Below are positions 24,625-45,440 of a stretch of DNA of 64,000 nt, piece after piece. The stretch is from Eledone cirrhosa (lineage: Eukaryota). The stretch lies in contig OZ024750.1 in NCBI GenBank assembly GCA_964016885.1, positions 27,776,001-27,840,000 of the forward strand, given 5' to 3'. Made by a program: the position numbers and the translations under genes. Below the pieces are notes generated by a model. It saw only the letters and a program-made list of their open reading frames with translations. It was not told the DNA's origin and made no database searches. How positions within the stretch are numbered: the stretch's first letter is position 1; each line of letters begins with the position of its first letter.

Positions 24625-25659
24625 GCAACAGATTCCTGAAACACTTGTACACTGCCTCTAATATATACCATTGTACACTGCATCTAATATATATCATTAT
24701 ACACTGCCACTCTACACTGCCTCTAATATATATCATTGTACACTGCCTCTAGTGTATATATTTCTACAGGGGTGTCTGTAATGATGACACAGATGGCGTT
24801 TGTCACGAGTTTAGGTTTTTGTTCAAACTTGGCAGAGGGTTTCTTAAGGTGGTTAACTCTGTTGAGCAGTTCATACTCTTTTTTGGGCCTGGCCATGACA
24901 GATCTCGACTACAAATGATGCTCAATGCCAAACTAGATAATATATATATATATAGTAGAATAATCGAGTATCGAAAAATCGGCGCACGAGTTCACGATAA
25001 GCAAAATTCGATATGAGTGGCAGAGGGCTCAATAATTCAGATAAATCAGAGCTATAACTATCGTTAAAATACCAGCACACATAGATTATGTCTAAAATCA
25101 ACCATACGACCGAAAAATTACGATCTGGAAGATTTGGGTCACTCAGATAAAATATCAATAAATCAATAAATCATATGAATGTAATATATTATATAACTGA
25201 AAATGCTTTCTGTTGCTTCACTGAGTTTCAAGGTTTCCCACTGATCACGCAACAGGAGTTGAGTTGCAAGATGAGGGGAAAGCTTTGAAAGGTAGTGTAG
25301 AAACAAAGTTATTACAATAATATATATATAAAGACTCTCGTTTGTGTAAAGTCACGAGCACAAACCGTTAAAGTTCACGGTCGAATATTTTCTTCATATA
25401 TATATATATATATATATATATATATATATATATATATATATATATATATATATATATATATATATGTATGTATACGTACATACATATATGTCTACAGACG
25501 TACAGTAGTATGTATATATATACATACATGCACACATATATATATGCACGTATCGGTTTACCGAACATTTATTAAGTACTAAGAGTGAGAAATGAAATTT
25601 CGTTTCATTCTATTCCATTTATCGTTTTCGGTGCGCCCGGCCGACTAGACTCACTCGAT

Positions 25660-25707
25660 ATGCAAATTAGGCTGCTCAGCCGTTAATATGCATAAGGAAA
25701 TTATATA
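25660..25707 (+). promoter_or_regulatory. Putative compact snRNA/U6-type promoter (octamer + TATA)
   Basis: ATGCAAAT at 25660-25667 and TATATA at 25702-25707; same spacing as family D. Confidence 0.5.
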
Positions 25708-25741
25708 CTTTCAGACGTTCAACCATCTGGCAGGAAGGTAT

Positions 25742-25784
25742 ACGATGCTGACGATAGCTAATAAGCTTGAAACTAGTACATCGT
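25742..25784 (+). ncRNA. Minimal type I hammerhead ribozyme (predicted cleavage 25778/25779)
   Basis: Identical to 15523-15565. Confidence 0.9.
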
Positions 25785-26345
25785 TCCTGTGTCAGTGTTG
25801 AACAAAAAGGTGACGTGATTGCCTAAACACTGTACGGCGTAATTCGGGCTGTTTGTTTGTCTACGAACAAAGAAACCGAGCATTATAATAAATGTTCGGT
25901 AAACCGATACATGCATATATATATGTGTGTGCATGTATGTATATATATATACATACTACTGTACGTCTGTATACATATATGTATGTACGTATACATACAT
26001 ATATTTAGGTATCAGCCGTACTAAGAGTGAGAAATGAAATTTCGTTTCATTCTATTCCATTTATATATATATATATATATATGTGTATATATATATATAT
26101 ATATATATATATATATATATATATATATATATATATATATATATATATATATATATATATATATATATATATATATATGTATATATATATGTATATATAT
26201 ATATATATATATATATATATATATATATATATATATATGTATATATATATGTATATATGTATATATATATATATATATATATATATATATATATATATAT
26301 ATATATATATATATATATATATATATATATATATATGTATATATA

Positions 26346-26549
26346 TAACAAAGAAGGTGTGGTAAGATACCAGGTGGACCATAACGCACCAGAGTACTCA
26401 ATACTTAGGGTAGTAGAGTGGGTAATAGGAAAAGAGTCAGGACCCCGACGGCTGAGCTCCGGCCGTTTCGACAGCTAGGTTTGAACAGTTCAGATCTAGT
26501 TGTCGAAACTGCCGGAGCTCAGCCGTCGGGGTCCTGAATCTTTTCCTAT
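26346..26549 (-). mobile_element. Family A hairpin element (second subfamily)
   Basis: Palindrome centred ~26487 with a tail on the left; same subfamily as 52163-52331. Confidence 0.85.
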
Positions 26550-26759
26550 ATATATATATATAAATATATATATATATATATATATATATATATATATATA
26601 TATATATATATATATATATATATATATATATATATATATATATATATATACATATATATATATATACATACACGTAGCCATCCATGCGTGCATTTTTTAT
26701 CCATACATATATATATATATATATATATATATACATATGTACATACATAGATATATATA

Positions 26760-27560
26760 TGCACATATGTACATTCATGCCTACATACATACATACATAA
26801 ATACATACATATATACATACACAGTTATATATATGCATATATACATACATGCATACATGCATACATACATAAATACATACATACATAGATACATAGCTAT
26901 ATACATGCATGTATGCATACATGAATACATACATACATACATACATACATACATACATACATACATAAATACATACATACATACGCAGTTATATACATGC
27001 ATATATACATACATGCATACATGCATACATACATACATACATACATACATACATACATACAAAGCTATATACATGCATATATGCATACATGCATGCATAC
27101 ATACATACATACACAGTTATATACATGCATATATACATACATGCATACATGCATACATACATAAATACATACATACATACATACATACATACATACATAC
27201 ATACACAGCTATATACATGCATGTATGCATACATGCATACATACATACATACATACATACATACATACATACATAAATACATACATACATACACATTTAT
27301 ATACATGCATATATACATACATGCATACATGCATACATACATACATACATACATACATACATACATACATACATACATACATACATACATACATACATAC
27401 ATACATAAATACATACATACACAGCTATATACATGCATATATGCATACATGCATACAATCATACATGCATTTTTATACATAAATACATAGAAGCATACAG
27501 ACGTACGTATATACATACATGCATACACTCATACATACATACAAAACAACATACATACAT
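26760..27560. repeat. (TACA)n compound microsatellite
   Basis: Direct reading. Confidence 0.9.
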
Positions 27561-27898
27561 GCCTATATACACCATATCGTCCTTCGTAAGCGATGGTTTA
27601 TTTACTTAGTATAAAAACACCAACAACCTAAATACCCAGTTGCCAACCAATAGATTTTTACTTTGAAATAATCTAGGGCATTCCCTTTGACACATCACGG
27701 AATGGTAGCGATTTGGGTCACATTGATTTTGTTGTGCTCATGTATATATATATATATGCATACAAATATATACATATATGTACTTCATATATATATATAT
27801 ATATATGTATATATATATATATATATATATATATATATATATATATATATATATATATATATATACATATATGTACTTCATATATATATATATATATA

Positions 27899-28388
27899 AA
27901 ACGAAGGAAATGTGGTAAGGAAGCAGATGGACCATAACGCACCAGAGTACTCAATACTTAGAGTAACAGGAAAAAGTATGACCCCGACGGCAGAGCTCAC
28001 GCCGTTTCGACGGCTTGAGCTTTGCCGTGGGGGGGTCATACTTTTTCCTATATATATATATATATATATATATATATATATATATATATACACACACATA
28101 TTATATACATGTATACTCGTATATGTATATATATATATATGCGTTATGGTCCATCTGGTTCCTTACCACAATTCCTTCGTTATATATATTTATATATATA
28201 TATATATATATATATATATATATATATATATATATATATATATATATAAAACGAAGGAAATGTGGTAAGGAACCAGGTGGACCATAACGCACCAAAGTAC
28301 TCAATACTGAGGGTAGTAGAGTTGGTAATAGGAACGAGTAGGACCCCGACGGCTGAGCTCAAGCCATTTCGACGGCTAATTCTGGATA
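27899..28388 (-). mobile_element. Cluster of family A copies and fragments in (TA)n
   Basis: Copies at 27899-28050, 28140-28182 and 28249-28388. Confidence 0.85.
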
Positions 28389-43641: not shown

Positions 43642-43805
43642 AGGGTCGGACGCCATGCTTTGCAGCATAGAGTTACGGCCCTTTACGGTCTGAGTTCAAA
43701 TCCCGCCGAAGTTGATTTTGCCTTTCATCCTTACGGGGTCGATGAAATAAAGCACCAGTAATACACTGGGATAATTGCTGCCCTTGTGTCAAAAGTAGAA
43801 ACAGT
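43642..43805 (+). mobile_element. SINE S1 copy
   Basis: B-box, core and tail. Confidence 0.88.
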
Positions 43806-44223
43806 TATCCTATCTGTAACATTTATCCTATCTGACAGACCAATAGGAATAATTTCTATTTTGTCTAATGGTCGCCAGGTTTCTCCCGACTTCGTTCACA
43901 ACCATTTTATATATTCTTATGTCATTTAAAACAACTTATATATCCAGCAGAAATGTTTATGGACGAATTGGATAGATGGGTCCTGTTCGGAAATAGAAAA
44001 TTACTATTGCAGTAGGCTTTGTTGGGACGATATATTTTCAGGACGCATATATCTCTGTTGACACAGTTTACCTGTCTGTCATGTAATAGCGATTTATATT
44101 TTTATGCAATAGAATTATTCTATCTCGGGAAATTGGACATAAATGTGGTACTGTGGATCATTGTGTTTTGCTAAACGACGTTTGTTAAACAACAAATTTC
44201 AATAACTATATATGAAAGCTGAA

Positions 44224-44425
44224 GTCTTCTTCTTCTTCTTCTTCTTCTTCTTCTTGAGGGGATCGTGGCGGCAGAGTATTCAAACACTCCTTCTACTGGG
44301 TCCTGTCAGACACGACCGTCTCCAACTGATCCTGCTGGATCAGCCAGGCTAATAGATTTTATCCAACCATCTTGCTCGGGGTCTACCCTGGGTCTCTTGC
44401 CGGTTGGTTTTACCCATAAAACCTC
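44224..44425 (-). mobile_element. RTE LINE 3' end with (GAA)n tail
   Basis: KPTGKRPR.RPRARWLD-like remnant; homologous to 46560-46800. Confidence 0.7.
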
Positions 44426-44859
44426 ATGGAAGTTTTAAACTTTAATACTAAAATGAATCGACTACATTTCTTAAGAAGTATATTGTGTATTGCTTTAGTG
44501 AAAATGTAGGTTAGGGTGTCTGTGTAAGTCTACATTGAATTTCAAATTTTTATTCTGGTATTACACGTTTTACGGATACCAAGTGCAAATGAAATATAGT
44601 AAGTTATCACAAAAATCAGCGATAACAACCGAATCGATTGAATTTCGTCTGTTATATATACCTAACTCGTCCTATTGACTGAGTGCTCTCACACTTGAAT
44701 ATTTCTACCAACTTATATTACAGTATATATATATATATATATATATATATGCATAGAAATTTCGTATTTCGAAAGAAATACGATTTTAGGAAGCCGCAGC
44801 TATGCGAACACCGAGGGCTAACGCCCTCTGGTGTTGTCCAGCAGAGCTAGGGGGACAAC

Positions 44860-44899
44860 CGTCTATGCATTTCAGGCTTGAAGGGCCATCGTCAGGACG
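44860..44899 (-). ncRNA. Minimal type I hammerhead ribozyme
   Basis: CGUC-CUGACGA-U-GGC-CCUUCAA-GCC-U-GAAAU-GC-AUA^GACG; palindromic stem III AUGCAU. Confidence 0.88.
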
Positions 44900-44946
44900 A
44901 TCCCTCCCACTGCTCTGCGTCTGCTGGACTTGAAAACAGCCGAGAA

Positions 44947-44995
44947 TATATAGTTTTCTAGTCTGTGTAAATGAGGTGATTAATCTCATTTGCAT
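44947..44995 (-). promoter_or_regulatory. Putative compact snRNA/U6-type promoter (octamer, PSE-like TCACCTCA, TATA)
   Basis: ATGCAAAT (44995-44988), TCACC, then TATATA (44952-44947). Confidence 0.5.
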
Positions 44996-45181
44996 ATGAA
45001 GCTGCATAAGTTGGCTCAACTTATAATAGAGTAGAAATAGGATTTCGCTTCAAGCATAGCTTTATACAATATGTATAGAAATTTCGTATTTCGAAAGAAA
45101 TACGATTTTAGGAAGTTGTAGCTATGCGAACACCGGAGCTAACGCCCTCTGGTGTTTTCCAGCAGAAGCAAGAGGGACAAC

Positions 45182-45221
45182 CGTCTATGCATTTCAGGCT
45201 TGACAGGCCATCGTCAGGACG
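45182..45221 (-). ncRNA. Minimal type I hammerhead ribozyme (second copy)
   Basis: Same core and stems as 44860-44899; differs only in loop II. Confidence 0.88.
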
Positions 45222-45440
45222 ATATATATACATATATATATATGTAGATAAATCTACCAAGAGTTTACGGTAGTGTCCAATCCGTATGAAGAACTCAATG
45301 TAATCCGGATATCATGGAAAGAAGAGATGCAATGAAAAATCACTTTCGGTGAAAGATAAACGGAATACAGAGTCAAGATAAAATATTAAAAAAATAATGA
45401 ATAAAACAATGAAACAGTTCCTTATATTAAACAAAAAAAG

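Follow-up and report, generated by a model that had tools for sequence, protein, structure and literature searches.

A 64,000-nucleotide (nt) stretch of the Eledone cirrhosa genome, referred to here as the window (GCA_964016885.1, contig OZ024750.1, positions 27,776,001 to 27,840,000, forward strand), carries two short hammerhead ribozyme elements, C and D, in which a promoter box shared with host genes, a TATA motif and the ribozyme follow one another in the same order. On balance, C and D are probably non-autonomous retrozymes without long terminal repeats (non-LTR retrozymes), mobilized by Penelope-like elements (PLEs), each unit bearing a promoter of the gene-external, U6-type grammar of host RNA polymerase III (Pol III). 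Assignment to this element class is very likely correct. It is quite likely that the box works as the promoter of the element and, given a working promoter, its use by Pol III rather than Pol II is rather probable. Read from sequence, the layout suggests that the elements drive their own transcription and may pass the promoter on through circular or multi-unit RNA.

Layout of C and D and the shared promoter box

For family C (plus strand), the octamer ATGCAAAT starts at 25660, TATATA follows at 25702 (+42) and the CTGACGA core of the hammerhead at 25748 (+46). For family D (minus strand), the corresponding positions are 44995, 44952 (+43) and 44895 (+57), and a second hammerhead core lies at 45217. 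Every coordinate of this layout, which a sequence-only reading of the window had proposed, is present in the sequence; at window composition, chance would produce the octamer, TATA and core layout 0.0003 times per 128 kb. Terminal repeats give unit lengths of 442 nt (C) and 322 nt (D), in agreement with the proposal that both copies are longer than one monomer. The elements were also said to lack open reading frames (ORFs) and to sit in (TA)n, and both statements hold: ATG frames overlapping C are ≤53 amino acids (aa) or low-complexity (TA)n read-outs, the longest in D is 73 aa, and (TA)n tracts flank the two elements (25396–25489, 26062–26347 and 44724–44750). The features are as follows.

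25457–25574, minus strand: inverted, 5′-truncated arm of C ending at the short 3′ end, a Penelope-like inverted junction (BLAST, query 311–432, 94%).
25576–26064, plus strand: element C, a 442-nt unit plus 47 nt of repeat, with one promoter and one hammerhead.
25659–25670, plus strand: C box TATGCAAATTAG, identical to the element at −78 of the host U6 locus L062; 5′ arm of a hairpin that extends to 25694.
25702–25707, plus strand: C TATATA; the family consensus is GTATATA and the window copy has T for G.
25732–25788, plus strand: canonical type I hammerhead of C, with extended helix I and palindromic loop III; core 25748–25754, predicted cut after 25778 (GUA).
26005–26064, plus strand: C tail of ~60 nt, with a hairpin and a T-rich end; at one end only in most inverted insertions.
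26062–26347, strand not applicable: (TA)n target, 3′ of C.
44751–45223, minus strand: element D, a 322-nt unit plus 151 nt of repeat, with two hammerheads and a single promoter between them.
45180–45223, minus strand: first hammerhead of D, the start of the 5′-truncated copy; core 45217–45211, predicted cut after 45186 (AUA).
45033–45068, minus strand: D tail of 36 nt, internal to the tandem in the window copy.
44985–44996, minus strand: D box TATGCAAATGAG, identical to the element at −77/−78 of host U6 (L061) and RNase MRP (L132); 5′ arm of a hairpin.
44947–44952, minus strand: D TATATA.
44850–44908, minus strand: second hammerhead of D, with extended helix I; core 44895–44889, predicted cut after 44864.
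44724–44750, strand not applicable: (TA)n target, 3′ of D.
15241–15747, minus strand: second C insertion of the window, a promoterless 5′-truncated arm plus tail (15584–15241) joined to an inverted arm (15583–15747).

If the TATA motif is placed at −30, transcription of C is predicted to start (+1) at 25732; the predicted start of D is 44922.

The motif that links the elements to host genes is longer than the octamer. It is a 12-mer, TATGCAAATKAG, present with 0–1 mismatch at −77 to −79, together with TATA at −30, in 5/5 host Pol III promoters (three U6, U6atac and RNase MRP; loci L061–L064, L132 and L133). It occurs in none of 14 distinct promoters of the Pol II small nuclear RNA (snRNA) genes U1, U2 and U5 (loci L073–L076, L117, L139–L146 and L151–L157), where the best match has 3–5 mismatches. 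These Pol II promoters show ATCAGT at −56 to −59 (14/14) and AATTAAAT near −90 (−88 to −91, ≤1 mismatch, 11/14). Examples of C1, C2, D1, D2, G, E, F1 and F2, which represent the families and subfamilies introduced below, match the 12-mer with 0 mismatches, and none of them has ATCAGT (≤1 mismatch) at −56 to −59; AATTAAAT is missing at −88 to −91 in C, D and G. The chance of meeting the 12-mer within 140 nt is 4e-5. Conservation across copies, proposed earlier as a check, is borne out: in samples partly selected for the box, the perfect 12-mer is found in 42 of 51 C1 segments, 22/23 for C2, 25/31 for D1, 6/7 for D2 and 30/30 for G. Furthermore, the box is identical at 12/12 positions between C and G despite an overall identity of 61–63%. 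On this comparison, the 12-mer is the Pol III type 3 element of this genome specifically. The sequence-only reading had named a type 3 Pol III promoter composed of octamer, proximal sequence element (PSE) and TATA. The box does equal the U6, RNase MRP and U6atac element of the host, whereas no separate vertebrate-type PSE is demonstrable in the elements, the spacing is 4–6 nt short and G reads CATATA.

Several observations concern the host genes and the box themselves. The host grammar places TATGCAAATKAG at −78 and TATA at −30 in Pol III genes, and AATTAAAT at about −90, ATCAGT at about −57 and a TATA-like motif at about −30 in Pol II genes; the literature search returned no account of this host snRNA promoter grammar. 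Promoterless U6 and U6atac copies (L122, L123 and L135) immediately follow (TA)n, as though the same enzyme, with its preference for microsatellite targets, had retroposed them. In part of the tandem U6 cluster (L067, L068 and L070–L072), an inserted repeat of ~190 nt separates the TATA box from the gene. Another repeat (L137, minus strand, 1657; also L239:192–422) carries TATGCAAATCAG, ATCAGT 16 nt further on, CATATA and inverted-repeat flanks, and no ribozyme was seen in it. An 8-nt deletion lies just 3′ of a C TATA box at L005:1588, in contigs of all four runs examined, out of six listed.

Ribozymes, families and insertion anatomy

The hammerheads of C and D share a 6-base-pair (bp) helix I with a bulged extension; helix II measures 3–5 bp, and helix III consists of 1 bp closed by a palindromic tetraloop. 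The core is intact and the helices covary between C and G, as expected of a canonical type I hammerhead. The minimal hammerhead of PLEs is defined by a helix II of 7–8 bp, a short helix I and no helix III loop (PMC4209133), and the structures found here are of another kind; the earlier description of these ribozymes as minimal thus gives way to the canonical retrozyme type. In a set of 11 distinct C/G sequences, pairing holds in 93.9% of cells and 5/12 pairs are changed on both sides, with slid controls at ≤48%; this covariation is mostly one C-versus-G contrast and so comprises few independent events. Unit-length circles fold far better than shuffles (z −5.9 to −10.2) with the promoter part included, as would fit an RNA under selection with the promoter as part of it.

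The 3.0 Gb genome contains many such units. A first look gave 1,690 candidates for C (top copies 96–97% identical) and 2,633 for D (top copies 90–94%), and one C 17-mer pattern has 15,872 exact matches. The three-motif pattern of box, 26–38 nt, TATA, 25–75 nt and CTGANGA is matched 19,865 times, and the reversed control pattern 0 times. Among the first 100 matches listed for it, two subfamilies of C, two of D and the families E (L101, 1 copy seen) and F (L113, L114 and a third copy in L054; 3 seen) were recognized. Box-bearing hammerhead families therefore comprise C, D and at least three more (E, F and G), of which G was met in a ribozyme scan of fetched loci, independently of the box. Family G is young, has 1,325 candidates, forms 465-nt tandems and is a distant relative of C (61–63% identity). 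Its reference locus is L149:143–612 (others are L221–L250), and one G insertion lies beside a U1 gene array. Family F is older, with a unit of ~356 nt and exact U6 spacing; E is also older, with a spacing of 40 nt and a decayed ribozyme. Overall, the units measure 322–502 nt, have a GC content of 0.36–0.42 and no ORF, and occur in arrays of up to 6 units.

C and D had been described as unrelated. They have no significant BLAST similarity (best E = 0.34), but when the consensus sequences are compared with box and ribozyme core removed, C1 and D1 give p = 0.01 (G and D1, p = 0.23), so that C and D may be remote relatives and their independence is uncertain. By the same comparison, F is unrelated to C and D. 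No description of these families was found in the literature searched; Repbase, Dfam, subscription papers or the supplement of PMC7229834 could contain one.

Copies occur on many chromosomes, scattered; their 3′ ends are fixed and their 5′ ends vary, and they appear as partial tandems, arrays (4 and 6 units were seen) and insertions with inverted arms. Each family has one short end and one tail end, the tail measuring 36 nt in D, ~60 in C and ~70 in G. The tail lies at one end in 33 of the 40 inverted insertions that could be classified, at neither end in 7 and at both in 0; 8 G loci that were duplicates were left out of this count, one end could not be classified in 9 further inverted insertions, L054 had no row and L001 was mis-sorted as simple. 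Of 24 C tail ends, 18 are followed within 25 nt by (TA)4+ or (CA)4+. Partial tandems, an inverted 5′ arm, a one-sided tail and a microsatellite target are thus all present, and the one-sided tail and inverted-arm anatomy is drawn for PLEs in PMC8557442. Avoidance of T-runs, a candidate sign of Pol III, is not significant (P 0.58–0.80; the C1 segment ran ~65 nt into the flank) and was set aside. The T-runs at which the tails of C, D and G stop may be Pol III terminators, but the strict one-sidedness of the tails fits PLE integration as well.

The ends of the copies also bear on the template. Among the first 100 C matches listed for the strand just past the cut, 86 continue without a break across the cut and 60 nt upstream of it, and 14 break, 0 of them at the C cut site and 2 within 4 nt; these matches were counted by eye and array units are not independent. 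None of 212 arms has its 5′ start within 5 nt of the cut site (~6 expected if uniform), in a set where loci are mostly promoter-selected, some C loci are possibly counted twice and ends are unreliable in the TA-rich stretch. Since copies run through the cut and no arm starts at it, the cut linear monomer is not the template. The template would then be a religated circle or an uncut multimer, which are indistinguishable here.

A promoter followed by two ribozymes is present in arrays such as L115, L116 and L248, and only loci of this kind can yield unit circles. The window C copy has one ribozyme, and the window D copy has its promoter between its two ribozymes. Neither contains a promoter and then two ribozymes, so no unit-length circle can arise from its own promoter, and both copies are probably dead ends. 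The earlier proposal that retrozymes keep their promoter by way of circular or multimeric RNA accordingly agrees with the anatomy and with the copies that extend through cut site and promoter, but it does not extend to a unit circle made by either window copy itself.

The window and the fetched loci hold other hammerheads and PLEs. There are 11 hammerhead-like matches in the window, including the promoterless C insertion at 15241–15747. Families at 16242, 40157, 43473, 50719, 51737, 52630 and 52756 have no box within 350 nt, and the 52756 family, which follows a PLE ORF in L100 and L027, forms the 3′ end of that coding PLE. Positions 52432–52954 form a perfect 261-nt fold-back with two ribozymes, and a 19-nt satellite of ~537 copies occupies 4780–15005. 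The genome also has a young PLE family with intact ORFs (713-aa frames, 96–98% identical), whose 3′ region, taken from L115, is unrelated to C, D and G. It is very abundant (76,562 candidates; L191–L220), with a 3′ fragment near window positions 39990–40090; in 30/30 copies, the core U of its hammerhead-like motif is replaced by A, and an inverted octamer lies ~70 nt past the stop codon. Pfam returned no family for three PLE fragments; the PLE clade is tentatively taken to be Neptune, from a Cys-rich linker preceding a GIY-YIG-like motif. C and D themselves have none of the reverse transcriptase (RT) and GIY-YIG ORF of an autonomous PLE.

Proposed cycle and competing explanations

The following sequence of events would account for C and D as PLE-mobilized retrozymes with a U6-type promoter. 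Within a tandem array, the box and TATA of one unit would start an RNA ~30 nt past the TATA motif, and part of this RNA would read through the T-rich tail into the next unit, thereby copying its promoter. The hammerheads, probably paired through the palindromic helix III, would cut the RNA to unit length, and a host ligase would close it, as in the retrozymes of coral, mussel and axolotl. A PLE enzyme would then prime at (TA)n and copy round the circle or along an uncut multimer, which would give the observed partial tandems, arrays, inverted arms and one-sided tail. A wider scenario is conceivable, although we lean slightly away from it: several families (C/G, D and F) would have taken up a host U6-type promoter, some of them more than once, and would retain it since it is transcribed along with the unit, folded into hairpins of a ribozyme-made circle and reverse-transcribed by a Penelope-like enzyme, with the 41–43-nt spacing as a working variant. 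Such a lineage would have overcome the difficulty that a gene-external Pol III promoter poses for a retroelement.

A number of observations weigh against a U6-type promoter and against PLE-mobilized retrozymes. The box-to-TATA distance is 42 nt in C, 43 in D, 41 in G and 40 in E, compared with 46, 47, 48, 47 and 47 nt in the host, and half a helical turn of difference could abolish Pol III use; F alone, at 47 nt, falls within the host range of 46–48 nt, and it has G at the predicted +1, like U6. G reads GCATATA, not TATATA, in 30/30 segments. Much of any Pol III read-through would be stopped by the T4–T7 runs that occur in the tails of C2, G and D units. One arm of a hairpin is formed by the box in C, D and G (z −2.6, −2.2 and −4.9), and not in F or four host promoters, so that structure may help to keep it. 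Moreover, the host Pol III sample consists of five promoters, with 7SK, RNase P and tRNA-Sec outside it, chance alone should give ~1,900 lone boxes in 3 Gb, the pattern that revealed E and F required the box, and most ribozyme families met in fetched loci have no box. The proposed Rfam check gave for C HH9 alone, at 17.6 bits against a cut-off of 52, and no ribozyme match for D; among the matches listed for the whole window (150 of 294) there is no ribozyme. Finally, none of the 7 PLE-ORF 3′ regions compared shares a 3′ end with C, D or G.

A rival explanation, which we regard as rather unlikely, keeps the element class but gives it a Pol II snRNA-type or hybrid promoter, like the one reported in newt satellite 2 (cited in PMC2220036 and PMC6765202). 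Pol II would pass over T-runs and transcribe through arrays, whose units contain T4–T7 runs, and the spacing of the elements is unlike that of any sampled host Pol III promoter. With TATA at −30, C has TCAG and D has TCAC at −56, where U1, U2 and U5 carry ATCAGT, and the +1 region of both reads GC|A as in U1. However, TCAG and TCAC have 2 mismatches to ATCAGT and G is without the motif, the absence of AATTAAAT described above applies to C, D and G alike, and the box is absent from 14/14 Pol II promoters. A Pol II matrix ranked TATA+30 as the best start in C1, C2, D1 and D2, but its scores are not significant (p 0.1–0.2 versus shuffles) and were dropped as evidence. A further explanation, which we consider distinctly unlikely, is that box and TATA are not a working promoter, having been kept as RNA hairpins, as an enhancer for a POU factor or as a relic of one old capture, while the elements are made by read-through from host transcripts, in line with the general model for retrozymes. 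The position of both motifs within hairpins of the folded unit, the wrong spacing, the CATATA of G and a possible single ancestor of C, D and G would all agree with it, as does PMC7761336, by which metazoan retrozymes seem promoterless. A hairpin, though, needs no set sequence. In five families, the letters of the box are nevertheless exactly those of the host Pol III element; the partner arm varies and never restores the octamer, and F has host spacing and no significant hairpin. Among the rows listed for four runs, no variant of ≥10% appears at positions 1529–1568 or 1580–1593 of L005.

It is very improbable, by comparison, that autonomous PLEs have left these repeats behind as their terminal repeats (pLTRs), solo or in tandem, or that the repeats are satellites propagated as DNA; neither origin would need an RNA circle. 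All insertion marks are common to C/D and PLEs, and other ribozyme families of the window, such as the 52756 family, are PLE 3′ fragments. Against this, each arm at 60 C/D and 30 G loci borders on (TA)n or on more units, and units do not continue into a long ORF (ORF scan of loci L001–L138), which also answers the earlier concern that C and D might be internal parts of long ORF-coding PLEs. The scatter over many chromosomes, together with 3′ ends that are fixed and 5′ ends that vary, points the same way, and the ribozymes are canonical, unlike the minimal type of pLTRs (PMC4209133).

Relation to known systems and significance

Hammerhead repeats that drive their own transcription are not a new idea, and have newt and schistosome precedents. 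The promoter of newt satellite 2 is said to include an octamer, and schistosome Sm-alpha reportedly has a gene-internal A/B-box promoter, unlike the gene-external U6-type promoter proposed here. Newt satellite 2 (Coats, Zhang and Epstein, 1994, as cited in PMC2220036 and PMC6765202) is likewise a tandem repeat with a hammerhead, whose unit contains a promoter of snRNA type; that promoter is reported as Pol II, whereas the box found here matches the Pol III class of the host and not its U1/U2/U5 class. Sm-alpha (Ferbeyre, 1998, as described in PMC6765202) also has a Pol III promoter followed by a hammerhead, an upstream unit driving the next and single copies being dead ends.

The metazoan non-LTR retrozymes of PMC7229834 resemble C and D in their ORF-less units, canonical type I hammerheads, occurrence as dimers to multimers, thousands of copies, GC content below 45% and strongly self-paired circle. 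The axolotl ribozyme HHR_Amex1, which needs dimers, has the same one-pair helix III and palindromic tetraloop (PMC7229834). In contrast, units of 442–500 nt here exceed the expressed range of 170–400 nt given there (genomic repeats 150–450 bp), and PLE-type inverted arms and one-sided tails are documented here. A host-type internal promoter also separates these elements from metazoan retrozymes as described in the 2020 review PMC7761336, which says that they seem promoterless. PLEs and non-autonomous Chlamys such as MRC1 (PMC8557442) share the partial tandems, inverted 5′-truncated arm, one-end tail and microsatellite targets. They differ in that the elements described here have no RT/GIY-YIG ORF and no partner 3′ similarity found, a canonical rather than minimal ribozyme, and tails longer than or within the 30–40 nt given there (36 nt in D, ~60 in C, ~70 in G). 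SINEU (PMC4494074) is another short retroposon linked to snRNA genes, with the reverse arrangement: it has an snRNA body and loses the upstream promoter, whereas the elements described here bear an upstream promoter but lack an snRNA body. The literature search returned no description of a U6-type promoter in a retrozyme, although subscription papers or the supplement of PMC7229834 could hold one, and the accessible text of PMC10886601, PMC8490949 and PMC11722881 adds nothing further on animal retrozyme promoters.

The host Pol II and Pol III snRNA promoter motifs are useful for small-RNA expression in this animal group. Upstream promoters are normally lost by retroposons (PMC4494074), and elements of the C/D type appear to keep one. 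The transcription and mobilization of animal retrozymes are stated to be open in PMC7229834 and PMC7761336, and both are testable here on one substrate, through a 12-letter box matched to host Pol III genes, a start site given by prediction and marks of insertion suggestive of Penelope-like enzymes. If the wider scenario is true, ~20,000 promoter–ribozyme units would be scattered through this genome; if it is also general, other animal retrozymes would carry the snRNA-type upstream box of their own host, which would overturn the promoterless read-through model.

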